Of a stretch of DNA of 64,000 bases, positions 2,738 to 29,488 are shown piece after piece (within the stretch, counting starts at the first letter, position 1; the number at the start of each line of letters is the position of its first letter). The notes beneath the pieces were generated by a model. The model did not search any database. It saw only the letters and a program-made list of their open reading frames with translations, and was not told the DNA's origin. The translations under genes and the position numbers were made by a program. Origin of the DNA: Thermoanaerobaculia bacterium (GTDB lineage Bacteria > Acidobacteriota > Thermoanaerobaculia > Gp7-AA8); assembly GCA_034665065.1 (NCBI GenBank), contig JAXDGL010000001.1, forward strand, positions 34,691 to 98,690, written 5' to 3'.

Positions 2738-2910
2738 AGGTAGATCTTTGATCCTACATGAATCGCGCCGCCTGGCAATCGGCGTTCGATAACGAACGGT
2801 TACGAAATCGAGAGACTGTCTCACGCGAAGACACGGAGAAAAACCAACTCCGCACCTCCGCATCTCCGGGTGAAACTGTTTTTCGGGCTACTGCGAGATA
2901 CTTTGTCCTC

Positions 2911-4581
2911 ATGAGCGAAAGTCCAGCCCTTCCCGAGACGCGCAACAAGACCGAGCACGTCTTCCCGGTTCTCACGCCGGCGCAGATCGCGCGCATCGCG
3001 CCGCTCGGACGCGTGAGGCCGATTCAGGCAGGCGAAGTGCTGCTCGAAGCGGGGGAACAGGCCGATCACTTCTTCGTCATCCTTTCCGGGCGTCTCGACA
3101 TTCTTCGTACAACCGACGGAACGGAGTCGCTCGTGGTGTCGCACGGTCCGGGCATGTTCAGCGGCGACGTCAACATGCTGTCGGGCCGCCCAACGCTCGT
3201 ACGCATGCGCGCCGGAGAAACGGGCGAAGTCATCGAGCTCGATCGCGAGCACCTCATGTCGCTCGTACAAACCGACAACGAGCTGGGCGAGATCCTCATG
3301 CGCGCCTTCATCCTCCGGCGCGTGGAGCTGATCGCACGGGGTGTCGGCGGTGTCATTCTGATCGGATCGACGCACACGCAGGGGACGCTGCGCATCAAAG
3401 AGTTCCTCACGCGCAATGGCCATCCCTACAACTACATCGACCTCGATACGGACTCCGACGTTCAGACTCTGCTCGATCGATTTCACGTCAGCGTCGATGA
3501 CGTACCGGTGTTGATCTGCCGCGGCGAATTCGTCCTCCGAAATCCTTCCAATGAGAAGATCGCCGACTGTCTCGGCTTCAACGACGCCATCGATGAGGTG
3601 CACCAGCGCGATGTGGTCATCGTCGGCGCCGGTCCCGCCGGACTCGCCGCCGCCGTCTACGGCGCGTCCGAAGGCCTCGACGTTCTCGTGATCGAGTCGA
3701 ACGCACCCGGCGGCCAGGCCGGCGCCAGTTCGAAGATCGAAAACTACCTCGGCTTCCCCACCGGCATCAGCGGACAGGAGCTGGCCGGCCGCGCCTACAC
3801 GCAGGCACAGAAATTCGGAGCGCAGGTGATGATCGCGCGCGGCGCGAAGGAGCTCTCCTGCAGCCGCCGTCCGTTCGCCATCCTGCTCGAGAACGGATCG
3901 CGTGTTCCCGCGCGGACAGTGATTATCGCCACCGGCGCCGATTACCGGCGGCTGGCGATCGACAACCTGGCGCGATTCGAAGGCGCCGGCATTTACTACG
4001 GCGCGACGTTCGTCGAATCGCAGGCATGCGCAGCCGAGACAGTTGCCATCGTCGGCGGAGGAAACTCGGCGGGACAGGCGGCAGTGTTTCTCGCCGAGCA
4101 TGCGCAGCGCGTATTCATCTTCGTGCGCCGCGAAGGGTTGGATGAAACGATGTCGCGCTATCTCATCCGCCGCATCGAACAGAATCCGCGCATCGAGCTG
4201 CGAACGCGCACGGAAGTCGTCGCACTCGAAGGCGAGGATCACCTCGAGCGGATCCGCTGCCGCGATCACGCGGAGAAAGCCGAGACTCTGAACATCCGCC
4301 ATCTCTTCGTCATGACAGGTGCGGTGCCCAGCACGAAATGGCTGGACGGCTGTGTGACGCTCGACGAGAAAGGCTTCATCCGCACCGGCCCCGATTTAAC
4401 GCCCGAACATCTCGCCGCCGCCGGCTGGCCTCTGAAACGCGCGCCGTACCTCCTCGAGACAAGCCTCCCCGGCGTCTTCGCCGTCGGCGACGTAAGATCC
4501 GGCAACGTCAAGCGCGTCGCCTCGGCGGTCGGCGAAGGCTCGATCGCGATCTCGTTCGTACATCGTGTGTTGCACGAGTAG
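2911..4581 (+). CDS. cNMP-binding domain / thioredoxin-fold / FAD-dependent thioredoxin-reductase-like fusion
   Basis: N-terminal cNMP-binding-like fold (GEVLLEAGEQADHFFVILSG...GMFSGD). GAGPAG FAD motif, GGGNSAG NAD(P)H motif, C-terminal TSLPGVFAVGD. Confidence 0.85.
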   Translation: MSESPALPETRNKTEHVFPVLTPAQIARIAPLGRVRPIQAGEVLLEAGEQADHFFVILSGRLDILRTTDGTESLVVSHGPGMFSGDVNMLSGRPTLVRMRAGETGEVIELDREHLMSLVQTDNELGEILMRAFILRRVELIARGVGGVILIGSTHTQGTLRIKEFLTRNGHPYNYIDLDTDSDVQTLLDRFHVSVDDVPVLICRGEFVLRNPSNEKIADCLGFNDAIDEVHQRDVVIVGAGPAGLAAAVYGASEGLDVLVIESNAPGGQAGASSKIENYLGFPTGISGQELAGRAYTQAQKFGAQVMIARGAKELSCSRRPFAILLENGSRVPARTVIIATGADYRRLAIDNLARFEGAGIYYGATFVESQACAAETVAIVGGGNSAGQAAVFLAEHAQRVFIFVRREGLDETMSRYLIRRIEQNPRIELRTRTEVVALEGEDHLERIRCRDHAEKAETLNIRHLFVMTGAVPSTKWLDGCVTLDEKGFIRTGPDLTPEHLAAAGWPLKRAPYLLETSLPGVFAVGDVRSGNVKRVASAVGEGSIAISFVHRVLHE

Positions 4582-4808: not shown

Positions 4809-7118
4809 CTACTCGACAACCGGCCTCGGCAAGGGCGGCTTCAGGCCGCGACTCCAGTGGCGGTGAGCGGCGATCGCGGCGATGAAACCTGCGGCGAAGG
4901 AGCGGCCCCGCGTCTTCGAGGTGACGACGCCCGCCAATGGATCGGCATCGGGCCCCGCCTCCGGATGCGCTTTCGCATTCGTGATACCGGCGGCATCGAG
5001 GAGCTTCACGCCGGCACCGCTTGCAGCGATCGGCTTGTAGTGCTTGAACGCGTCCTGCAGGAACTCGATCGCGGCGGGCTCATTCATCAACGCGGCGATT
5101 GCGGCGTCGCCGCCAGCGACGTAGACGGCATCGAAAAAGACCGAGCTCGCGGTGAGGATGCTGAACTCGGCATTCATCGGCGCGCCATCCGCGCCGGAAA
5201 AGGCGCCAACGTGGCGGCCGACGAGCCGCGGCATCGCTCCTTCGGCCATCAATGCCTTCTTCATTGCGTCGATGTCAGCGGGATCGCTCCCTTCCGCGAC
5301 CAGGATGGCCACCTTGCGTGTGCGAATGTTCGGTTCAGGCTTGTTCGGAGTGAGCAGCATGCTCGTGGCCGGCGATGTCTCGACGTTGCGATTGACCGGT
5401 TTCGGCTGCCAGTCGCGCGGATTTGCATCGGCGGGGAAGCTCATGTTCAGCGGACCGCTGATCCGGGGGATCTTCTTCATCCCCAGTCCTTCGGCGACAC
5501 GCTGCGCAAGGCCCATGTCGACCTGTGAAAGCATCGCCACCATCCGTTCGCGAACGGCGACGGTCCCGCAGTGTCCCAGTTCGAACTGAAGCGCCTGAAT
5601 GATGTGCTCCTGTTCCGGCGCCGACTGACTCCTGAAAAACTGCAGCGCCTGCGTGAAGTGATCGAAGAATTTTTCGCTGCGCGCTCCCCGCACTTTGGTT
5701 CCCGCCAGCGCTTCCGGATGCGAGACGAAACCTCCGCTCTTGGAGCCAGCCTGAAACGGACAGCCGCCGCCGAGTGTGTTCGGCTCGTAGGCGACGCGTC
5801 CTTCGTTAATGGTCTGGCGCATCTGCCCATCGCGTTGAAGGTTGTGGACCGGAGCGACGGGACGGTTGATGGGGATCTCGTTGAAGTTGGGTCCACCGAG
5901 ACGCTTGAGTTGCGTGTCGAGGTAGGAGAATAGCCGGCCCTGCAGGAGCGGATCATCGCTGAAGTCGATGCCCGGAACGATGTGCCCGAGGTGAAAGGCG
6001 ACCTGCTCGGTCTCAGCGAAGAAATTGTCGGGGTTGCGGTTCAGCGTCATCTTCCCGATGCGGCGGACCGGCACGAGCTCCTCAGGAATGAGCTTCGTGG
6101 AGTCGAGAATGTCGAAATCGAATTTGTGCTCGTCCGCTTCGGGCACGATCTGCACGCCCAGCTCCCACTCCGGAAAGTCGCCACCGGCGATCGCATCCCA
6201 CAGATCGCGGCGATGAAAATCGGGGTCCTTCCCCGAGATCTTCTGCGCCTCGTCCCAGACGACGGAGTGCATACCCTGCAACGGCTTCCAGTGAAACTTC
6301 ACGAAGCACGACTTGCCGGCTTCATTGACGAAACGAAAGGTGTGGACGCCGAAGCCTTCCATCATCCGGAGGCTGCGGGGAATGGCGCGGTCCGACATCA
6401 CCCACATCACCATGTGCATCGCTTCCGGCATGAGCGAGATGAAATCCCAAAAAGTGTCGTGCGCCGACGCGGCTTGCGGGACTTCGTTGTGCGGCTCCGG
6501 CTTCACCGCATGGATCAGGTCGGGGAACTTCAGCGCGTCCTGGATGAAGAAAACAGGGATGTTGTTGCCGACGAGATCGACGTTTCCCTCGTCGGTGTAG
6601 AACTTCGTGGCGAAGCCGCGAACGTCGCGAGCGAGATCGGAAGAGCCGCGTGAACCGGCTACCGTCGAGAACCGGACGAAGACGGGCGTCTCACGCGAAG
6701 GATCTGTCAAAAAGCGCGCTTTGGTGAAGCGCTTCATCGAGTCGTCGTAAACACGGAAAATGCCGTGCGCCGCAGACCCACGCGCGTGAACGATGCGCTC
6801 CGGGATCCGTTCATGATCGAAGTGCGTGATCTTCTCCCGGAGGTGAAAATCTTCGATCAGCGTCGGACCGCGCACGCCTGCACGGAGCGAATTCTGGTCG
6901 TCCTCCATTCGCAGGCCCTGGTTCGTAGTGAGGAAGTGATCGTCGGAGCTCTCGCGGTCGCGTTCCAGCTCGTCCAACTTCCTATTGCTCGTCGTGGATC
7001 GGGCGCGCCGTTCCTTTTCTGCGTCCGATTTCGATGCGCTTGCTTCGGTGCGCGCATTCGGCGCGGTCCCGCGCGGTTTGGCTTCCTTCGTTGGTGCAGT
7101 TCGCTTCGCTTTTGCCAT
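4809..7118 (-). CDS. katE: Large-subunit catalase (HPII type) with C-terminal DJ-1/PfpI-like domain
   Basis: [15 protein letters not shown] catalytic His motif, RLFSYLDTQ heme-ligand motif, C-terminal flavodoxin-like domain. Start at MAKAK with GGGGGA SD. Confidence 0.95.
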
Positions 7119-7980: not shown

Positions 7981-8023
7981 GATGATCTCCATTCAAGTTC
8001 TTCCACTCTCGGATTGCTCGATG

Positions 8024-8077
8024 CCCCCTCATCCGCCTTCGGCACCTTCTCCCCCACAAAAGGCGTGGGGGAGAAGG
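8024..8077. repeat. REP-like element family C (CCCTCATCC...CCTTCTCCC-loop-GGGAGAAGG)
   Basis: Hairpin ccttctccccca...tgggggagaagg. A related element lies at 51811-51930. Confidence 0.7.
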
Positions 8078-8169
8078 ACGCTCCATGTTGAGTTTTCGTG
8101 ATCATTCCATCCTCGGAACCTGCAAGCTCTGACAGCCCTCCCGGAACCGAACATTCGCGAGACGTCGAA

Positions 8170-9045
8170 TCAGGCCGCCACCGGCTGGCAGTGACGGCAC
8201 GGGCGATAGCCGTTCTCGAGCGCGTCATCGGCATCGCGGAAAGGCATCCGATTCTTTTCCTGGATCCGCTTCGCATCGCGGCAGGTCGGGAAGCAGAAGA
8301 TGTGCGTCGTGCGCGATCCGATGTAGCGCACGTGCTCGCGCGCCAGTGCATCGAGCTCGTCGACATTCACCCCTTCGCGCTCCAGCAACGCGCGCTTCGT
8401 GGCGCTGCCGAAGATGTAGTTGCCGACGCCACCCGACGACGGCACGACGCGATGACACGGCACGACGTACGGAACCGGGTTGCGAGCGATGATGCTTGCG
8501 ACCGCCCGCACCGCACGCGGCCGGCCAGCCTGGCGCGCGACCCACGCATACGTCCGCACCTCTCCGCGCGGAATGCGGCTCAGCGTGGTCAGCACGTCGT
8601 GTTCGAGATCGTTCGTGGCATCCAGATCGACCTTGGGGGAATTCACTCCCTCCCCTTGCACCGCCGCCTGCACTTGACGCCGCAACGCATCCGGAATCGC
8701 CGCAGGTTCGAGAACGCGTCCGTACTTTTTCGCATACGCCGCGCGAACGTCGTCGATCGATTTCGCCTCGGCGATCATCCGGATCCGTCCATTCGCGAAC
8801 GCCACCCATGTGTCGCCGACGCGGTCGAAGGAATCGGCAATCTCCTCTTTGACCGCGTCGCGGCAGGAACGCTCCGGCACGACCGCAAGCGATTTGATTG
8901 CGTGCGCCAGATTGATCACGTCCGCCTGCGACTCGTTGCAACTGCGGCAGGTCTTGAAGTGCTGCTCCACCGCAATCTTCTCGATCGTCGCCAACTCGCG
9001 TGTCCGCAGCGCGTCGATCCGCGTCAACACTGTTCTACATTGCAT
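8170..9045 (-). CDS. Fusion: zf-HC2 (ZAS) anti-sigma motif + O6-alkylguanine-DNA methyltransferase domain + C-terminal Ada Zn-binding domain
   Basis: HFKTCRSC (HxxxCxxC), NPVPYVVPCHRVV (MGMT active site) and IFCFPTC...GYRPCRHCQP (Ada N-domain with 4 Cys). The start overlaps the sigma factor stop. Confidence 0.9.
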   Translation of the reverse strand: MQCRTVLTRIDALRTRELATIEKIAVEQHFKTCRSCNESQADVINLAHAIKSLAVVPERSCRDAVKEEIADSFDRVGDTWVAFANGRIRMIAEAKSIDDVRAAYAKKYGRVLEPAAIPDALRRQVQAAVQGEGVNSPKVDLDATNDLEHDVLTTLSRIPRGEVRTYAWVARQAGRPRAVRAVASIIARNPVPYVVPCHRVVPSSGGVGNYIFGSATKRALLEREGVNVDELDALAREHVRYIGSRTTHIFCFPTCRDAKRIQEKNRMPFRDADDALENGYRPCRHCQPVAA

Positions 9046-9667
9046 ACGCCACCCCCTTCTGGGTTGCCGGCTTCTCCAGCGCATCGCGCAACAGCTTGAG
9101 CGACCGGAACACCTTGCCGCGAAGAGCCGCCTCCGACTGACCTACCGTTTTGGCGATCTCCGCATACGACATCTCTTCCATGAACCGCAGCACGATCAAC
9201 TCGCGCGCGTCGACGGGCAGCAGCGCCATCGCACGGCGCAGCAGCTCGATCTCTTCCCTCCGTTCCAGATCCGAGCCCTCCAGATTGACGAACGGCCCGA
9301 GCCTGCCGTCATCGAACGTCTCCAGCGGTTGCTCGAGCGTGCTCCGCTTCGAGCGCCGCTTGTTGAGGGAGAGATTGCGCACGGTCTTGAACAGCCACGG
9401 GCGCAACGCCAGCGTCGCGCAGCGCGCCTCGTCATACTGCCGCGTCAACGCCTTGTGCGCGCGCATCATCGCGTCCTGCACGACTTCCTGCGCGTCGAAC
9501 GTGTTCTGCAGAATCCCGTGCGCGTACCCGAAGAGCGGCTGCTCGAATCGATCGATGAGCCTCTCGAACGCCCCCGGCTCGCAGCGATGGACAGCCACGG
9601 CGAGTTCGCCCCCATCGCCCAGCTCAGGCTCGCTCGCAGTCTCGCCGCCTGTCCAACTGTTCTTCAT
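9035..9667 (-). CDS. ECF RNA polymerase sigma factor
   Basis: Region 2 (AFERLIDRFEQPLFGYAHGILQNTFDAQEVVQDA...LRPWLFKTVRN) and region 4 (RELIVLRFMEEMSYAEIAKTVG). Confidence 0.93.
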   Translation of the reverse strand: MKNSWTGGETASEPELGDGGELAVAVHRCEPGAFERLIDRFEQPLFGYAHGILQNTFDAQEVVQDAMMRAHKALTRQYDEARCATLALRPWLFKTVRNLSLNKRRSKRSTLEQPLETFDDGRLGPFVNLEGSDLERREEIELLRRAMALLPVDARELIVLRFMEEMSYAEIAKTVGQSEAALRGKVFRSLKLLRDALEKPATQKGVAYAM

Positions 9668-9676
9668 ATAGGTAAG

Positions 9677-9701
9677 AACACGGGGAAAGGGAGTTTCGTT
9701 C
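9677..9701 (-). promoter_or_regulatory. Putative ECF-type autoregulatory promoter GAAC-N16-GTGTT
   Basis: Minus strand reads ccGAACgaaactccctttccccGTGTTcttacctatATG. The spacing fits the ECF -35 AAC / -10 GT pattern. Confidence 0.4.
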
Positions 9702-9723
9702 GGGGCCTACTCGAAAAGCATTG

Positions 9724-9766
9724 TCACGCGGAGACGCGGAGAAAGCCTCCGCGGTCTCCGCGTGAA
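9724..9766. repeat. Palindromic MITE/REP-like element family A (CACGCGGAGACGCGGAG...CTCCGCGTCTCCGCGTG), short copy
   Basis: tcacgcggagacgcggag...ctccgcggtctccgcgtgaa; five further copies occur in the window. Confidence 0.85.
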
Positions 9767-9805
9767 CCCGTAACCCTGTTGCTTCGAAGGAGAAATCGAA
9801 CCTCC

Positions 9806-11071
9806 CTACTCGTACCGCAGCGCGTCGATCGGATCCAGCTTTGCTGCTTTGTACGCGGGGTAGATTCCGAAGAACAGGCCGATCGAGATCGAGACCACCA
9901 AGCCCACGACGATCGACCAGATCGGCGTGGCCGTCTCCAGCGGGCTGACCTTGCGCACGACCAGCGCGATCAGCATGCCCGCCGCGACGCCGATGATGCC
10001 GCCCATCCCTGACAGCGTCATCGCTTCGGTCAGAAACTGCACGACGATGTCCCGCCGCACGGCGCCGATCGCTTTGCGCACGCCGATCTCGCGCGTCCGC
10101 TCCGTCACCGACACGAGCATGATGTTCATGACTCCCACACCGCCAACCAGCAGCGCGATCGATGAGATGAAGATCATCGCCAGCGTGATGCCGCCGGTGA
10201 CAGCCTTGAAGTTTCCGATCAACTTGTCGGGCGTCATCAGACCGAAGTCATTCGGCTTGTTGAAGGGGACTTTGCGCCGCGCGCGAAGCACGGCGGTCCC
10301 CTCTTCCGTGATGCGATCGACCCATTCCGGTCTGCGCGGAACGGTAGCGATGTTCACACCCATCGTTCTCTTGATCGACGGGAAATGCGCATCGAATGTC
10401 GTGATGGGGATGAAGATGTGCGAATCGGTCGACTCGAAGAACGTTGCGCCCTGCTTCTCCATCACGCCGATGACCGTGAACTTGCGGCCGAAGATCGTCA
10501 CTTCCTTGCCGAGGGGATCGCGGCGCTGGAAGAGTGTATCGGCGATGCCGGAGCCGACGACGATGACCGGCGCGCTCGATCGAACGTCGCTGTCGCTGAT
10601 GAAGCGCCCTTCGCCGACAAAGTGATTGTTCGCGATCGTATAGTCCTGATTCACGCCTCCGAACTCGTCGGGCGTGGCCTGCTGGCTCTTGTAGATCACT
10701 TCCAGCGACGCGTTGTTGCCGTTCCAGTAACGCTCGGGCGAAACGGCCAGCATCGAAGGGCAGAGGCGCTTGAGCGCCATCGCATCCTCGTACGTCAGAT
10801 CTTTCCGCATCCGCTGCGATTCGTCGTTGTTGCCGGGACCGAAGCGCGGATCGAATTTCTGGAACTGCACGAGCGTCGCACCGAAGGATTGAAACTCGCG
10901 CGTGACGTTGTTGTTGAACCCTTCGATGATCGAGACCATGGCGATGACCGTCGTCACGCCGATGACGATGCCGAGCACCGTGAGCGCGGAGCGGAGCTTG
11001 TACGCGGTCAGCGCGCGCGCGGCGAAGCGGACATTCTCACGGGCAGCAAGGATGTGGTCACGTGCGCGCAT
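9806..11071 (-). CDS. ABC transporter permease (MacB/FtsX family, no fused ATPase)
   Basis: LRSALTVLGIVIGV, VGGVGVMNIMLVSVTERTREIGVRKAIGA and PAYKAAKLDPIDALRYE motifs. True start about 11071; the longer ORF-track N-terminus is a shadow frame. Confidence 0.92.
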   Translation of the reverse strand: MRARDHILAARENVRFAARALTAYKLRSALTVLGIVIGVTTVIAMVSIIEGFNNNVTREFQSFGATLVQFQKFDPRFGPGNNDESQRMRKDLTYEDAMALKRLCPSMLAVSPERYWNGNNASLEVIYKSQQATPDEFGGVNQDYTIANNHFVGEGRFISDSDVRSSAPVIVVGSGIADTLFQRRDPLGKEVTIFGRKFTVIGVMEKQGATFFESTDSHIFIPITTFDAHFPSIKRTMGVNIATVPRRPEWVDRITEEGTAVLRARRKVPFNKPNDFGLMTPDKLIGNFKAVTGGITLAMIFISSIALLVGGVGVMNIMLVSVTERTREIGVRKAIGAVRRDIVVQFLTEAMTLSGMGGIIGVAAGMLIALVVRKVSPLETATPIWSIVVGLVVSISIGLFFGIYPAYKAAKLDPIDALRYE

Positions 11072-11076
11072 CACGA

Positions 11077-12288
11077 TTACTCCGACCTCAACGCATCGAT
11101 CGGCGGCAGGTTCGCCGCGCGCATCGCGGGAAAAAATCCAGCGGCGACGCCGGTGATCACCGCGATCATCAGACCGCTGATGACGAGCGAAGGTCTGACC
11201 AGCGTCGGCAACGGGAACACGGCAGAAATCACGAAACTGATCAGCGAGCCGAGGAGCACGCCGGCGATTCCGCCGCCAAGGGAGAGGAGAATCGCCTCGG
11301 TGAGAAACTGAAACTGGATGTTGCGTTTGCGCGCGCCGAGGGCGCGGCGAATCCCGATCTCGCGCGTCCGCTCGATCACCGACACCAGCATGATGTTCGT
11401 GATGACGATGCCGCCGACGACGAGCGAGATGCCGGAGATGAAGATCATCACCGCGAATCCCGCCGCCGAGATGCTCTTCCACAACGACTGCAGCGCTTCG
11501 GCCGAGACAACGCCGAACGGATCGTCGGCGCGAAACCCCGTCTTGCGCCGGCCGCGGATCAGCACGCGCACCTGATCGAGAGACTTCTCCAATCCGGGAA
11601 CGCCGCCCGCCGCGCGAATGTAGAGATTGAGTCCTCGCTTCGAGCCAAATGCTTTCTGGTACGCCGTGAGCGGGATGTAGAGCTGATTGTCCTGACTTCG
11701 TCCGAGAACCGAACCCTGTTTGCGGAGCAATCCGATGACGCGCGCGGGGCGGCCGGCGATGTGAATCGTGCGCCCGATCGGATCGAGCTTGCCGAAGAGC
11801 TCGTCCTTCACGTCCGATCCGATCACCGTCACCATCGCCGCATGCTCATCCTCGGTACGCGTGAAGAAGCGGCCCTCCTCGACGTCGACGTTGCTGATCT
11901 CGCCGATGTTGGCCGTGCCGCCCTGCACACGAACGCCGCCCAACTTCTGCGCGCCGTTCTTGACGGTCATGCTGTTCGCTTCCTGCGCTCCGACGGCTGC
12001 GCACAGAGTGCACTGCGCGCGGATGGCCTCGTAGTCGTGCCAGTCGATCTTCTTGCGCTTCACCGCGGTCAGAAATTGCTCGCGGCTCGTGATGATGCCG
12101 AATTGCGTGACGACGTAGACGTCGGGACTGAGCGTGAACACTTTCTCCGCAATGTAGGAGTTCAGGCCGGAGATGATCGAGACGACGGAGATGACGGTCA
12201 TCACGCCGACGATCACGCCGAGCAGCGTGAGGAAGCTGCGAAGCTTGTGCGCGGCGAGCGCGGCGACTGCGATGCGGAGAGTGTCCAT
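11077..12288 (-). CDS. ABC transporter permease (MacB/FtsX family)
   Basis: KLRSFLTLLGVIVGV...VGGIVITNIMLVSVIERTREIGIRRALGA...PIDALRSE. Confidence 0.92.
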   Translation of the reverse strand: MDTLRIAVAALAAHKLRSFLTLLGVIVGVMTVISVVSIISGLNSYIAEKVFTLSPDVYVVTQFGIITSREQFLTAVKRKKIDWHDYEAIRAQCTLCAAVGAQEANSMTVKNGAQKLGGVRVQGGTANIGEISNVDVEEGRFFTRTEDEHAAMVTVIGSDVKDELFGKLDPIGRTIHIAGRPARVIGLLRKQGSVLGRSQDNQLYIPLTAYQKAFGSKRGLNLYIRAAGGVPGLEKSLDQVRVLIRGRRKTGFRADDPFGVVSAEALQSLWKSISAAGFAVMIFISGISLVVGGIVITNIMLVSVIERTREIGIRRALGARKRNIQFQFLTEAILLSLGGGIAGVLLGSLISFVISAVFPLPTLVRPSLVISGLMIAVITGVAAGFFPAMRAANLPPIDALRSE

Positions 12289-12296
12289 GATGTCCT

Positions 12297-12429
12297 GGGT
12301 GTCGGGTGTCGGCTGTCAGGTGTCGGGTGTCGGGTGTCGATGACTCGTTGGCTGGCGCGGCCGACCGCGCGCAGCTCGAACCACTAATCCACTGATCACT
12401 AATCCACTGATCACTGATCACTGATCACT
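12297..12429. repeat. Opposed heptamer tandem arrays: (GGGTGTC)x6 and (CACTGAT)-type x~7
   Basis: Read directly at 12297-12338 and 12381-12429 in the macA-macB intergenic region. Confidence 0.9.
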
Positions 12430-12434
12430 CATCG

Positions 12435-13673
12435 CTAGCCCTTCTTATCCCCGCTCGCTCCTTCGCCTTCCTTCTCTTTCTGCTCCTTCACCTTCGTCCC
12501 ATCCTTCAACTCACGCAACGCGCGGAAGGGGCCGGTGATGATTTGCTGTCCTTCCTTTGCGCCGCTCACAATCTCGATCGCGCTGTCGCCGGAAAGGCCT
12601 GTCGTGACGGTCTCGAACTTCACGGCGCCGTTCTCATTGATGAAGACGCCTTCCTCATCCTGCGGCTTGCCGGGCGCACTTCCTTTTTTTTCGCGGACGA
12701 CAAGGGCCTGGACCGGGATCGCCAGAGCTTTGGTGCGCGTGCCGGTGATGATGTCTGCCGACGCGGAGAAGCCGGGACGAACACCGGGCGGCGGATTCTC
12801 GATCTGGATCTTGACCTCGAAGTTCACCGCCTCCGTGCTGCCGCTTCCGGAAAGGCCGTTTCGTTTGATGGGACTCGATGCCACCTCGGTCACGAGGCCG
12901 GGGAACGTCTTGTTCGGATAGGCGTCGATCGTGACGTTGGCGCGCTGGCCGACTTTCACCGCCGGAACGTCGGTCTCGTCAACCTCCATCACTGCTTCGA
13001 CGACGCTCATGTCGGCGATCGTCATGAGCACGGTGCCGGCGTTGTTCATCGTTCCGATGACGGCGACTTCCCCTTCCTCTACGGGAAGAGCGGTGACGAT
13101 GCCGGCCATCGGCGCGCGCATCGTCGTCTTCTGCAGTGTGTCGCGCGCGGCGTTGAGGTTCTCGCGCGCCTGGCTGATGCGCTGCTCGAGCGCCATCACG
13201 TTGGCGCGCGCGGAGTCGCGAGCACTCTGGGCGCGATCGAGGTCGGCGCGGGGAATGATCTTCTGATCGAAGTTTTTCTGCGCGCGCTGAAAGTCCTGTT
13301 CCGCGGCGATCGCCTGCGCTTTCGCGGCATCGCGGTCGGAGAAGACCGCCTGGAGCGCGGCGTCGGCGCTGCGCGCGGAGGCAGCGAGTTGCTTCTGATC
13401 GATCTGCAGAAGGAAGTCGCCCTTCTTGACGACGTCGCCCTCGCGCACGGCCAGGTTGACGACCTGCCCCATCACGTTCGCGGAAAGATCCACTTTGCGT
13501 TTGGCGTCGATGCGCCCGTTCGCGGAGACCTTGCTCGTCAAATCCTGCCGCTTCACGTTGCCGAAGGTGACGGGCGTGATGTCTTTGCCGCGATTCGATA
13601 CAAATCCGGCAGTGACCATGCCCGCAACGACGAGCACGACCACTCCGATGATGATTTTGGTGCGACGCCTCAT
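12435..13673 (-). CDS. Efflux periplasmic adaptor subunit (MacA/HlyD family)
   Basis: N-terminal TM anchor, lipoyl-like GQVVNLAVREGDVVKKGDFL, alpha-hairpin, and TMRAPMAGIV motif. Confidence 0.92.
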   Translation of the reverse strand: MRRRTKIIIGVVVLVVAGMVTAGFVSNRGKDITPVTFGNVKRQDLTSKVSANGRIDAKRKVDLSANVMGQVVNLAVREGDVVKKGDFLLQIDQKQLAASARSADAALQAVFSDRDAAKAQAIAAEQDFQRAQKNFDQKIIPRADLDRAQSARDSARANVMALEQRISQARENLNAARDTLQKTTMRAPMAGIVTALPVEEGEVAVIGTMNNAGTVLMTIADMSVVEAVMEVDETDVPAVKVGQRANVTIDAYPNKTFPGLVTEVASSPIKRNGLSGSGSTEAVNFEVKIQIENPPPGVRPGFSASADIITGTRTKALAIPVQALVVREKKGSAPGKPQDEEGVFINENGAVKFETVTTGLSGDSAIEIVSGAKEGQQIITGPFRALRELKDGTKVKEQKEKEGEGASGDKKG

Positions 13674-26524: not shown

Positions 26525-29488
26525 ATGAAACGGACCTATCTACTCATCGCTCTCGTAATCACTCTGCAAGTTTGCATCCTCCCGCTCGTGGCTGCGGAAA
26601 CGCCGAAAGAGTGCAGCCTCTGCGCCGGTGTGATTTCCGACCTGCAGATCGTTCCCGCTACGCCGCTGCCGCTCCTCGTGCGCGTTCGTCAGGATGACTT
26701 CGCGGCAGCCGGAACCGCGCTCGACGCCATGCCTCCCGCGATTCGCGCGAAGATGACTGTCATCGTCGGATACGCCGTCGACGCAGGCAAAGACCCGATG
26801 GCGGATGTCGAGACGCACACGCAAGCGGTCGTCGAGTGGGCGCGCGTCCACGGACCGTTCGAAGCGATCGGCATCACCGCCGATAACGTAGAGCCGTCGG
26901 TAGCTGGTTATGCGATCAAGCGGCTCGCCGTCTCAGCGCAAGGGCAGAACGTCGCGTCGAGGATCGTGTTCGACGCGAGCGTCCAGGGTCGGAAGCCGGG
27001 CGTCGAAGCAGCACTCTCGAGCACCACCTCTCCCGACCTCCAGACAGCGATTCCTGGCTCGCTTACGATGCTCACCGACACCGGGGCGCAGTCGTACGTC
27101 GATGTACTGCTCACCGATGCGGCGGATGTGAAAGCGACGCAGGCCTGGGTGCTGGAAAAAGACCCTGCCAAGAAAATCTGGGCGATCGTTCCACCGCAAT
27201 CTCCCAACGTCTTCTTCGACGTCGCCCGCTCGCTTGCCGACGGCGCCACGCGCGCGTACACAAGCGCGCCCGCGACGGCCGAGCTCCTCACCGCCGCCGC
27301 GAGCTTCAACCGCGCGCTCATCGGCGACTACGCGTTCGATTCCACCGCGCGCATCGACCTGCTCGACGCGAAAGGCAACAAGGTCGACGAGCCGGCGCTG
27401 GCGTTCGTGCGCGGCGAGGATCTGCGCACCATCATCGTTCCGCGCGGCGACGCATCCGCGTCGACGATCGTCTCCCTAGCCGGTGACGACTACAAGAAAC
27501 CGCGCCGCTACGACGCCGCCGGCGACAAAGATGTCACCGATGTCGGCACGAAAGGCGGCCGCTTCCTCATCGGTATGCCGCCCGTCACGAAGCCGTTCGT
27601 CTTCACGGTCGAGCACAACGAAGTGCCGCGCGCGAACGTCACCAAAGAAGCGGTGAACATCACCGGACATCGCAGCATCCCGGTCGAGGAGATCATCCGC
27701 AATCATCAGGTGTACAAGTCGTATGAGGAGTCGATCCAGCCGCGGTACGTCGCGCGCGACGCGACCAAGCTTCGCTTCACGATGACCGGCGGCGAAGCGA
27801 TCGAAGCGACGATCTCCGGCGACTACTTCTCCGATCCCCTTGCGAAACCAACGCCGCGCGCCGACTGGGTGTGGCAGGACTTTTACCTCAACGGCGTGAA
27901 GTGGAAGTACGGGAAGATTCCGGAACTCCCGCTGATCCAGCCGGAGAAGGTGTCGCAGCTTCCGCTCGACATCCATCTCACGAATGAGTACCGCTACGAG
28001 CTCGTTCGCGAGACCGACCTCCTCGGCTATCACACCTACGAAGTGCGCTTCGAGCCGCCGGCCAAAGCGCCGGCGAATCTGCCGCTCTACCGCGGAACGG
28101 TATGGATCGACGCGCGATCGTGGGCACGCATCCGCCTCTCGATGGTGCAGCTCAACCTGACCGGCGAAGTGCTCTCGAACGACGAGCGCGTCGACTTTCA
28201 GCCGTTCGCGCGAACAACACACGCGCCACTAACGTCCGCAGACGTCACGAAAACGGATCCGCGCGAGATCCTCTGGCTTCCGCAGACCGTGAGCGCGCAG
28301 CAGGTCGTGTCCGCGGCAGGACGAGGCACGGTTGTCCTCCGCCAGACCGACTTCACCGACTTCCGCATCGATCCGGAAAACTACGAGACGCACCTCGCCG
28401 AGGCCGAGAAATCCGACGCGCGGATGGTCCGCGAGACCAAGGCCGGCCTGCGCTATCTGGAGCGGACCACGACCGGTGAGCGCGTCGTCAAAGAAGGCTT
28501 CAACTCTTCCCGCACTTTTCTCATCGGCGGCGTCCACCACGACGCCGGCCTGCAATATCCGGTCGTCCCCCTCGGCGGCATCGACTACTTCAACTTCGAT
28601 TTCAAGAACACAGGGATTCAGACCAACGTCTTTTTCGCAGGCGTCGTGCTCGTGGCCAACGCCACGAATCCGAATGTGGCCAAGACGCACACAAACGTCG
28701 GCGTCGACTTTTTCGGCATCGCCTTTCCGTCGACCCAATCGCTCTACCGCAACGGCAGCGAGCAGCTCGGCGAAGAGGTGAAGGCGCTGCCGACGCGGAT
28801 CTCCGTTCGCGCCGGCCATCCGTTCCTGCAGTTCGGCAAGATCGACGTCTCGCTCACCGCGCAGCACCTCACGTATATGCGCAGTGAGAACACCGCGGCG
28901 TCGTTCATCGTGCCGAGCGATACCTTCGTCATCACGCCGTCGCTCGACGCCCAGTACGCGCGATGGGGCGCGACGGTCACGGGCTTCTTCGACTACAACC
29001 GGCGAACGGCGTGGAAACCGTGGGGCAACCTGGCCGAGTACGATCCGAAGCAGAAGACGTTTCTCACCTATGGCGGATCATTGGCCAAGAGTTTCTACCT
29101 GCCAAAGTTCCAGCGCATCGGCGCGGAGATCGACTACCTCGACGGAACGCGTCTCGACCGCTTCTCACAGTACGGATTCGGTTTCTTCGGAGCGCAGCGA
29201 ATCCACGGCATCAAGTCGGGCTCCGTTCTGGCCGATCGCGCGATCCTCGCCCATCTCTCGTACGGATTCGTCTTCTCCGATCAGTTCCGCCTCGAGGCGT
29301 TCTACGATCACGGCCTCATCGACAACAAGCTGGCCGGATACCGCCGCGAGCCGTTCCAGGGACTCGGCATTGCCGGGCAGACGGTCGGCCCGTACGGAAC
29401 GCTGCTCCGTCTCGATATCGGCAAGACGATCGGACGCAACGCGCAGACCGGATTCGTGGCGGATGTGGTGTTCCTGAAGTTGTTCTGA
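26525..29488 (+). CDS. Large secreted multidomain protein, probable outer-membrane beta-barrel C-terminus
   Basis: Signal peptide, aromatic-rich alternating beta strands in the last ~300 aa, and terminal Phe (VFLKLF). Confidence 0.7.
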   Translation: MKRTYLLIALVITLQVCILPLVAAETPKECSLCAGVISDLQIVPATPLPLLVRVRQDDFAAAGTALDAMPPAIRAKMTVIVGYAVDAGKDPMADVETHTQAVVEWARVHGPFEAIGITADNVEPSVAGYAIKRLAVSAQGQNVASRIVFDASVQGRKPGVEAALSSTTSPDLQTAIPGSLTMLTDTGAQSYVDVLLTDAADVKATQAWVLEKDPAKKIWAIVPPQSPNVFFDVARSLADGATRAYTSAPATAELLTAAASFNRALIGDYAFDSTARIDLLDAKGNKVDEPALAFVRGEDLRTIIVPRGDASASTIVSLAGDDYKKPRRYDAAGDKDVTDVGTKGGRFLIGMPPVTKPFVFTVEHNEVPRANVTKEAVNITGHRSIPVEEIIRNHQVYKSYEESIQPRYVARDATKLRFTMTGGEAIEATISGDYFSDPLAKPTPRADWVWQDFYLNGVKWKYGKIPELPLIQPEKVSQLPLDIHLTNEYRYELVRETDLLGYHTYEVRFEPPAKAPANLPLYRGTVWIDARSWARIRLSMVQLNLTGEVLSNDERVDFQPFARTTHAPLTSADVTKTDPREILWLPQTVSAQQVVSAAGRGTVVLRQTDFTDFRIDPENYETHLAEAEKSDARMVRETKAGLRYLERTTTGERVVKEGFNSSRTFLIGGVHHDAGLQYPVVPLGGIDYFNFDFKNTGIQTNVFFAGVVLVANATNPNVAKTHTNVGVDFFGIAFPSTQSLYRNGSEQLGEEVKALPTRISVRAGHPFLQFGKIDVSLTAQHLTYMRSENTAASFIVPSDTFVITPSLDAQYARWGATVTGFFDYNRRTAWKPWGNLAEYDPKQKTFLTYGGSLAKSFYLPKFQRIGAEIDYLDGTRLDRFSQYGFGFFGAQRIHGIKSGSVLADRAILAHLSYGFVFSDQFRLEAFYDHGLIDNKLAGYRREPFQGLGIAGQTVGPYGTLLRLDIGKTIGRNAQTGFVADVVFLKLF

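Follow-up and report, generated by a model that had tools for sequence, protein, structure and literature searches.

A predicted zinc-binding anti-sigma factor fused to two DNA-alkylation acceptor domains beside an ECF sigma factor in Thermoanaerobaculia: a candidate alkylation-responsive switch

Gene organisation of the locus

The locus described here lies in a window of 64,000 nucleotides of Thermoanaerobaculia bacterium (assembly GCA_034665065.1, contig JAXDGL010000001.1, positions 34,691 to 98,690); all positions below are those of the window. A gene for an extracytoplasmic function (ECF) sigma factor of group 4 is followed by a gene for a soluble protein, called the fusion protein below, that combines a predicted class I zinc-binding anti-sigma domain (ZAS), an O6-alkylguanine-DNA alkyltransferase (MGMT/Ogt) and an Ada N-terminal-type zinc domain. 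The third gene encodes a stand-alone serine phosphatase of the PP2C/SpoIIE family, which an earlier note on this stretch had missed. The features of the locus and of its surroundings are listed in Table 1.

Table 1. Features of the sigma-fusion-PP2C locus and neighbouring features of the window.
Feature	Position	Strand	Basis or remark
ECF (group 4) sigma gene, 210 aa	9035..9667	-	Pfam and NCBIfam domain matches
Fusion gene, 291 aa, soluble product	8170-9045	-	ATG at 9045 (MQCRT...); stop at 8172-8170
Predicted class I zinc-binding anti-sigma domain (ZAS), fusion residues 1-69	8839..9045	-	zf-HC2, profile, AlphaFold model
O6-alkylguanine-DNA alkyltransferase (MGMT/Ogt), fusion residues 70-236	8338..8838	-	Pfam PF01035, Foldseek
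Codon of MGMT acceptor Cys197	8455-8457	-	within PCHR
Ada N-terminal-type Zn(Cys)4 domain, fusion residues 241-288	8182..8325	-	Pfam PF02805, alignment, Foldseek
PP2C/SpoIIE-family serine phosphatase, stand-alone, 245 aa	7255..7992	-	Pfam SpoIIE 8.8e-44
Spacer between fusion and PP2C genes, 177 nt	7993..8169	-	missing from several related genomes
Hairpin in the spacer, 14 bp, GC-rich	8045-8077	-	CCUUCUCCCCCAC...GUGGGGGAGAAGG; no U-tract
Predicted ECF-type promoter CGAACGAAACTCCCTTTCCCCGTGTT (GAAC-N18-GTT)	9677..9702	-	conserved upstream of sigma
Hairpin, 18 bp, GC-rich, then CAAUGCUUUUC (U-rich run)	9725..9764	-	fold of 9668-9805
Large-subunit catalase with C-terminal DJ-1/PfpI-type domain	4809-7115	-	directly 3' of the PP2C gene
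Cyclic nucleotide (cNMP)-binding domain fused to thioredoxin-reductase-like pyridine nucleotide-disulfide oxidoreductase	2758-4581	+	beyond the catalase gene
Two MacB_PCD/FtsX permease genes and HlyD-type membrane-fusion gene	9806-13673	-	upstream, same strand
Open reading frame, 1003 aa	26477-29488	+	high GC content at third codon positions; no Pfam match at E <= 1e-4

The sigma factor has only the sigma-2 and sigma-4 regions, without regions 1.1 and 3, and its length falls within the range of ECF group 4 (~170-220 aa). Pfam Sigma70_r2 matched residues 37-109 (1.2e-9) and Sigma70_r4_2 matched residues 141-193 (3.2e-11). The NCBIfam model TIGR02937 (sigma70-ECF) matched with an E-value of 4e-23 and 81.8 bits (cut-off 42.9), and no subfamily model reached its cut-off in the NCBIfam search. 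The best E-value against solved ECF sigma factors was only 5e-10. An unusual insert, Y-x-E-x-R...L-x-LRPWL, lies between regions 2.2 and 2.3.

The stop codon of the sigma gene (TAG, 9037-9035) lies inside the reading frame of the fusion gene, with an overlap of 11 nt. A Shine-Dalgarno-like run, GAAGGGGGTG, is located 5-14 nt 5' of the fusion ATG. An in-frame ATG at 9084 was rejected as the start of the fusion gene because nearly all homologues begin with M-Q/R-C.

Domain composition of the fusion protein

The N-terminus of the fusion protein is, as judged from its motif and profile, a canonical ZAS anti-sigma domain with the ligand motif C3-x25-H29-x3-C33-x2-C36. The Pfam model zf-HC2 matched residues 3-36 with 19.9-22.0 bits, just below its cut-off of 22.2, and it matched 15 of 17 diverse N-termini of the fusion family at E <= 0.01. 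A search against solved structures with the single sequence of this domain found nothing, and matches came from the profile search alone. The profile of the 17 diverse N-termini aligned to RsiW over columns 1-76, which cover all four helices (8.7e-8), and also matched DdvA (3.8e-5), RslA (8.1e-5), ChrR (2.6e-4) and, weakly, RsrA. The spacing of the four ligands mirrors that of C3/H30/C34/C37 of RsiW in the profile alignment. They are the sole invariant columns among the 17 N-termini.

The AlphaFold model, built with 44 close homologues, has a mean predicted local distance difference test (pLDDT) score of 79.7. Its N-terminal helices span residues 6-14, 20-29, 41-53 and 61-69, and the fourth helix passes without a linker into the first MGMT strand (70-76). 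The C-terminal end of the model is a small zinc domain. The ligand motif, the four-helix N-terminal domain and the position of the gene beside an ECF sigma gene, by which class I anti-sigma factors of the ZAS type are recognised, are all present. The fusion protein is very probably the anti-sigma factor of the adjacent ECF sigma factor; this estimate concerns the bare sigma/anti-sigma relationship.

The central part was matched by Pfam DNA_binding_1/MGMT (PF01035) at residues 148-226 (1.6e-27). Foldseek aligned 160-170 columns with full-length transferases, namely OGT of M. tuberculosis (3.8e-8) and E. coli Ada-C, human AGT and archaeal OGTs (to 1e-6), so the central part is a complete two-domain MGMT that extends beyond the C-domain detected by Pfam. 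The model of this region is a well-predicted alpha/beta domain (pLDDT 85-92). The acceptor Cys197 lies in a PCHR motif, and C197-H198-R199, N189, Y166, R180, Y210 and E224 are invariant in the 44 homologues. Aligned with human AGT, the fusion protein has equivalents of Y114, R128, N137, C145, H146, Y158 and E172. The PCHR acceptor, the catalytic network, the Asn hinge, the Tyr, the Arg finger and the two-domain fold of MGMT proteins are all present in it.

The C-terminal part was matched by Ada_Zn_binding (PF02805) with an E-value of 2.3e-12 and 47.1 bits (cut-off 23) over profile positions 18-64 of 65. The domain is shorter than a full-length Ada zinc domain, as the first ~17 profile positions are absent across the whole family. 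It aligns to residues 30-75 of E. coli N-Ada, where the cysteines C251-x3-C255...C283-x2-C286 are aligned to C38/C42/C69/C72. In Ada, C38 is the methyl acceptor. Foldseek aligned the fusion C-terminus to methylated N-Ada (1u8b, 4.8e-3). No Pfam match to HTH_AraC was found in the fusion protein. The four ZAS ligands, Cys197 and the four Ada cysteines are nine residues that are invariant in the 44 homologues, which are 66-91% identical.

The earlier note had described a sigma gene whose stop overlaps a 291-aa soluble open reading frame with an N-terminal HxxxCxxC ZAS motif, an MGMT domain with intact PCHR and a C-terminal Ada zinc domain with four cysteines, in reversed domain order and without the AraC helix-turn-helix. 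This description holds throughout. Its coordinates were right, and the minus strand had been left unstated.

The intact DNA-binding features permit a reading in which lesion binding rather than alkyl transfer is the signal. The fusion protein would then alter sigma availability by binding DNA or lesions as alkyltransferase-like (ATL) proteins do, or the complex would be kept on the nucleoid. The MGMT domain has an intact helix-turn-helix and arginine finger, the Ada DNA-binding domain is likewise intact, and ATL proteins (matches 3gva and 2kif) are examples of this fold acting in signalling with no alkyl transfer. However, ATL proteins have lost the acceptor Cys, whereas here the Cys and the catalytic network (PCHR, Glu, Tyr) do not vary among hundreds of sequences. 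The four conserved Ada cysteines also favour chemistry, although they are structural zinc ligands as well. We consider this non-catalytic reading to be improbable.

Homologues and the sister family without the zinc motif

The close homologues are named simply as O6-methylguanine DNA methyltransferase and originate from metagenome-assembled genomes of Thermoanaerobaculia (Acidobacteriota). All three motifs are present in 109 of the 120 best homologues. When 1.84 billion cluster representatives were searched exhaustively, 102 proteins scored E <= 1e-30. Among the best 150 representatives, 14 have ZAS, MGMT and Ada zinc domains, four have ZAS and MGMT only, and 86 have MGMT and Ada zinc domains without the zinc motif of ZAS.

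The family without the zinc motif (the ZAS-less family) corresponds to residues 41-291 of the window protein (hhalign probability 100, E = 2.5e-79, 38% identity), that is, to the fusion protein without its first 40 residues, which form helices 1-2. It comprises more than 7,000 clusters at 90% identity (E <= 1e-20), and its members belong, where named, to Actinomycetota and Chloroflexota. PCHR and the four Ada cysteines were found in 117 of the 117 ZAS-less members listed, and the ZAS motif was found in none of them.

Several variants were observed among these proteins. P0204, P0192, P0131 and P0168 have N-terminal extensions of 60-165 residues before the PF01035 region, with no H-x3-C-x2-C motif and no other Pfam match in the extensions, and P0204 is encoded directly after an ECF sigma gene. 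The extensions of some MGMT-Ada proteins may be zinc-free anti-sigma domains. P0270 has a domain of the S-adenosylmethionine (SAM) methyltransferase type at its N-terminus. P0181 (287 aa) joins a Sigma70_r2 fragment to an MGMT C-domain and an Ada zinc domain. It was rejected as Rosetta-stone evidence and is probably a deletion or assembly artefact, because its source is a single 4-kb NCBI contig and both sigma-4 and the N-domain of MGMT are missing.

Conservation of the sigma-fusion pairing

The scan for neighbourhoods used the window protein alone as query and identified close relatives only, all of them from Acidobacteriota. In all 22 close loci (22 GTDB species genomes of Thermoanaerobaculia), the sigma gene is directly 5' of the fusion gene with the same overlap. 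The diverse loci were taken from the cluster-representative search and then from the contigs of those proteins (Table 2). The sigma gene is directly 5' of the gene for the MGMT protein in all 13 informative diverse loci. The pairing of the anti-sigma domain with an ECF sigma factor, which the earlier note had read from one gene overlap, thus recurs across genomes, and the combination of ZAS, MGMT and Ada zinc domains beside ECF sigma genes that it proposed to search for exists in the related loci.

Table 2. Gene neighbourhoods of the diverse loci.
Locus	Source or type	Neighbourhood
L023	Chloroflexota	ECF sigma directly upstream
L024, L026	short contigs	sigma region 4 fragments only, upstream
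L025	ZAS-MGMT without Ada zinc	ECF sigma directly upstream
L027		ECF sigma directly upstream
L028, L029	ZAS-less	ECF sigma upstream; alkA directly downstream
L030, L031		ECF sigma upstream; extra 94-aa Ada_Zn gene upstream in L031
L032, L033/L034	fusion protein 42-49% identical	sigma-fusion-PP2C triad preserved
L035	ZAS present, no PP2C	ECF sigma upstream
L036	Rubrobacter radiotolerans plasmid 2	ECF sigma upstream
L037	Nonomuraea gerenzanensis	ECF sigma upstream
L038	long N-terminal extension without zinc motif	ECF sigma upstream

The partner sigma factors form a related set. The window sigma shares 51-55% identity with those of L021 and L025 and 34-37% with the sigmas of the ZAS-less class (E 1e-21 to 1e-29). 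The LRPWL insert is common to the partner sigmas. This relatedness suggests that the sigma factor and its MGMT-Ada partner have co-evolved. This sigma clade has remained paired with MGMT-Ada proteins in at least three phyla. Because the ZAS-less family keeps PCHR, the Ada cysteines and the ECF linkage, the constant part across the ECF-linked families is, by sequence comparison, the acceptor domains and not the zinc site.

Other genes of alkylation repair adjoin the pair in some loci. An alkA gene (AlkA_N and HhH-GPD) lies directly 3' of the sigma/MGMT-Ada pair in L028 (5924-6853) and L029 (2133-3062), and a stand-alone 94-aa Ada_Zn_binding gene precedes the pair in L031 (589-873). These neighbours tie the module to alkylation repair.

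Promoter and operon signals

The predicted promoter upstream of the sigma gene can be written as GAAC-N18-GTT or as CGAAC-N16-GTGTT. The pattern CGAACG...CCGTGTT is common to the window and 21 related loci, where it stands in register, and the same arrangement is found in L025, of which the sigma factor is 54% identical. The promoter that the earlier note had placed at 9677-9701 is therefore real in the sense of conservation. In L028, GTAAC-N16-GTGTT is located further upstream together with a Shine-Dalgarno sequence. The distance from GTT to the sigma ATG is 9 nt (10 nt in L016 and L020), and no Shine-Dalgarno sequence was found before the sigma ATG in the window or in the related loci. It is probably an autoregulated ECF promoter, and as it ends 9 nt before the ATG, it would yield a leaderless or nearly leaderless mRNA. 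Looser matches to the promoter motif occur in the window at 26947, 34653, 45087 and 51755.

The first residues of the sigma factor, MKNSWTGGE (9640-9667, minus strand), are nearly invariant in L001-L022, L032 and L033 and are kept even where the remaining sigma sequence is only ~50% identical. This conservation could be a constraint on the 5' end of a leaderless mRNA or could reflect a functional N-terminal tag.

The minus strand of 9668-9805 folds with -55 kcal/mol (z = -3.6), and none of 200 shuffled sequences was as stable. The hairpin within it, which has a counterpart at the equivalent place in L004, probably terminates transcription of the MacB/FtsX operon upstream and would insulate the sigma promoter. 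It is formed by one of the GC-rich palindromes with CGCGGAGAC or GCGAGACCGCG-like units that recur in intergenic spacers of the window and of L004, L006, L008, L011 and L015. These palindromes of the lineage resemble repetitive extragenic palindromic (REP) elements. MacB-like genes precede the sigma gene in 13 of the 22 related loci, and their distance from it varies.

The hairpin in the spacer between the fusion and PP2C genes may represent either an attenuator or the insertion of a repeat element. On the minus strand, no site resembling a terminator was called.

The PP2C gene and control of the sigma factor

The closest solved relative of the PP2C protein is the phosphatase domain of Rv1364c (3.3e-12). 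The PP2C gene is downstream of the fusion gene in 18 of the 22 close loci and also in L032, L033 and L034, and the fusion stop and PP2C start overlap as ATGA in L009, L012, L014, L016, L018 and L020. It is a conserved and often translationally coupled third gene in Acidobacteriota, and the versions in Actinomycetota and Chloroflexota do not have it. Within the first 32 kb of the window, neither a STAS nor an RsbW-type partner was seen.

The conserved phosphatase gene bears on whether the fusion protein is a regulator at all. It may instead be a co-transcribed repair enzyme that carries a zinc finger, with the sigma factor controlled otherwise, either through its transcription or through a PP2C phosphorylation cycle. 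Apart from the PP2C coupling, this reading is favoured by the zf-HC2 score of the window protein alone, which stays just under the Pfam threshold, and by the ZAS-less relatives, which are without helices 1-2 of the anti-sigma fold. The ECF group ECF122, considered below, is also listed without a cognate anti-sigma factor and with unknown mechanism in a review (PMC8999054). Against these points stand the N-terminal profile, which matches four solved ECF anti-sigma domains and RsiW over four helices, and the overlapping position directly 3' of the sigma gene, which is the canonical place of an anti-sigma gene and is invariant over three phyla. The phosphatase cannot be the general regulator because the versions in two of these phyla are without it. 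A fusion protein without regulatory function is quite unlikely.

Neighbouring genes and the zinc site as a possible sensor

Downstream of the PP2C gene lie the catalase gene and the gene for the cNMP-binding oxidoreductase (Table 1). The catalase was ruled out as a conserved clue to oxidative stress, as none is found within 6 kb in the 22 related loci.

These genes would fit a redox or electrophile switch in which the zinc-thiolate of the ZAS domain is the sensor, as in RsrA/SigR, and the MGMT and Ada domains are fused repair cargo produced in fixed ratio with the anti-sigma domain. Oxidants or electrophiles, possibly including SN2 methylating agents that act on zinc-bound thiolates, would expel the zinc and free the sigma factor. 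The complete C-x25-H-x3-C-x2-C motif is invariant in the fusion family, and GAAC-N18-GTT resembles the SigR/SigH-type consensus GGAAT-N18-GTT, both of which speak for this switch. The best structural match, RsiW, is not known to be a redox sensor, which speaks against it. According to a survey of class I anti-sigma domains (PMC7406223), those that are soluble and bind zinc are linked to redox sensing inside the cell. The more numerous sister family, however, retains the ECF pairing and both acceptor domains with the zinc motif in 0 of 117 members, which rules out the zinc site as the conserved sensor. None of the 22 related loci has the catalase gene in synteny, and the conservation of MGMT and Ada domains as mere cargo would be left unexplained. 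We regard a redox switch as unlikely.

Comparison with known systems

The nearest association on record is that of group ECF122 (representative WP_057211282.1 of Cellulomonas sp. Root930). According to the 2022 review (PMC8999054, citing Casas-Pastor et al. 2021), 6-O-methylguanine DNA methyltransferases are conserved beside the sigma factor, and the group has no cognate anti-sigma factor and an unknown mechanism. This review is the sole text found that links ECF sigma factors to MGMT, and the main text of the 2021 re-classification does not mention methyltransferases. The loci resemble ECF122 in that an MGMT gene is at position +1 of the sigma gene in all loci examined, and the ZAS-less family (Rubrobacter, Nonomuraea, Chloroflexota) fits it, including the absence of a recognisable anti-sigma factor. 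In contrast, the partner of the window sigma has a recognisable ZAS domain, and the window belongs to Acidobacteriota (Thermoanaerobaculia) and has a coupled PP2C gene, whereas the ECF122 representative is actinobacterial. The link of the window sigma to ECF122 is indirect, through its 34-37% identity to sigma factors of actinobacterial and Chloroflexota MGMT-Ada pairs.

The novelty that the earlier note had proposed is reduced, because the ECF-MGMT association is already on record as ECF122. Neither its reading as an anti-sigma system nor the ZAS-bearing form, the spread over three phyla, the alkA link, the promoter or the PP2C coupling was found in the searchable literature.

The fusion protein resembles E. 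coli Ada in that both suicide acceptor modules, Zn(Cys)4 and the PCHR transferase, are in one protein. In E. coli Ada, irreversible self-methylation is the signal that induces its own gene, and the same is proposed for the window protein. The two differ in that the order is reversed in the window protein (MGMT, then Ada zinc) with no AraC-type helix-turn-helix, and its output would be sigma release instead of activator action of the protein itself. The Ada equivalog model NF011964 matched the MGMT part only, with 93.5 bits against a cut-off of 345. The score, the missing AraC helix-turn-helix and the reversed order indicate that the fusion protein is not an Ada orthologue.

The anti-sigma factors of the RsiW/SigW, RsrA/SigR, ChrR/SigE and RslA/SigL pairs share with the fusion protein a four-helix N-terminus of ~75 residues with Cys/His-x(25-26)-H-x3-C-x2-C. 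As in ZAS anti-sigma factors, the fusion gene is directly 3' of its ECF sigma gene and overlaps it, and the protein is soluble like RsrA. RsiW, RsrA, ChrR and RslA differ in having no DNA-repair domains, and their similarity to the fusion protein is at the profile level only. RsiW is known to be controlled by regulated proteolysis, RsrA and RslA by disulfide stress, and ChrR by singlet oxygen through a cupin domain. Ogt and human MGMT have the complete two-domain fold with all catalytic residues, as does the fusion protein. However, they are stand-alone repair proteins without a regulatory partner, whereas the fold in the window protein is flanked by the anti-sigma and Ada zinc domains.

Proposed mechanism

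We propose that the three genes form a self-induced operon of ECF sigma factor, anti-sigma factor and PP2C phosphatase in which alkylation triggers the release of the sigma factor. On the present evidence the proposal is evenly balanced between being right and wrong. Sigma binding, alkyl transfer, release on alkylation and autoregulation by the fusion protein and sigma factor are all inferred.

In the unstressed cell, the N-terminal four-helix domain would sequester the sigma factor and keep it inactive. When the DNA is alkylated, Cys197 of the MGMT domain would irreversibly accept an alkyl group from O6-alkylguanine or O4-alkylthymine, and Cys251 of the Ada domain may irreversibly accept a methyl group from methylphosphotriesters. 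The modified fusion protein would then lose its hold on the sigma factor. Most likely, the alkylated MGMT fold would be destabilised and proteolysed, or a change would be propagated through the linker-less junction of helix 4 and MGMT. Alkylated human AGT is destabilised and degraded, which is a precedent for the release step. Another possible route would be tighter DNA binding of the methylated Ada domain, by the electrostatic switch of methylated N-Ada. The free sigma factor would act at the GAAC-N18-GTT promoter and raise the synthesis of itself, PP2C and the regulon. It would also supply fresh repair protein, which is fresh inhibitor and would reset the switch. Because one anti-sigma molecule would be spent for each lesion repaired, the output would be proportional to the damage.

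Alkylation is favoured over redox as the input because most of the family does without the zinc site, whereas neither acceptor site is dispensable. The recruitment of alkA and of an extra Ada zinc gene by relatives makes it more plausible still.

Several points weigh against alkylation-triggered release. The anti-sigma domain of the model was predicted with moderate confidence only (pLDDT just 54-76), and the anti-sigma function of the ZAS-less family, from which helices 1-2 are missing, is only presumed. The route by which a buried MGMT Cys or the C-terminal domain would affect the N-terminal domain is conjecture. A search of the 64-kb window for CGAAC-N16-GTGTT with one mismatch returned only the own site of the operon, where 4.75 matches were expected by chance, and no alkA or alkB is near the window locus. 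PP2C has no place in the simple model and is explained by none of the readings, and it may point to a further layer based on phosphorylation. Oxidants and electrophiles can be sensed by ZAS domains themselves, and the catalase gene, although not syntenic, and the thioredoxin-reductase-like gene adjoin the locus. Literature searches that linked ECF or anti-sigma factors to alkyltransferase, Ada or alkylation found no experimental work.

Significance

The proposed release can be extended to a "suicide anti-sigma", in which each alkyl transfer destroys one inhibitor and frees one ECF sigma factor. With such a lesion-counting switch, the module, instead of the Ada/AraC design, would be the adaptive response to alkylation across much of Actinomycetota, Chloroflexota and Acidobacteriota. 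This extension is tentative, and we give it somewhat less than an even chance. The hypothesis is directly testable because Rubrobacter radiotolerans and Nonomuraea gerenzanensis, which carry the ZAS-less form, are in culture. A sigma/anti-sigma pair with an output proportional to the modification of a SNAP-tag-like domain could also serve as an orthogonal, ligand-triggered synthetic switch.

If the mechanism is true, a covalent and irreversible DNA-repair event would be a new class of input for ECF sigma factors, for which proteolysis, redox, partner switching, phosphorylation and C-terminal extensions are known. Evolution would then have solved, a second time and independently, the problem for which E. 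coli uses Ada. The "orphan" group ECF122 would gain a testable mechanism, the logic of which would be revealed by the ZAS-bearing form in the window. Thousands of proteins named "methylated-DNA--protein-cysteine methyltransferase" in the more than 7,000 ZAS-less clusters would then be re-annotated as regulators.

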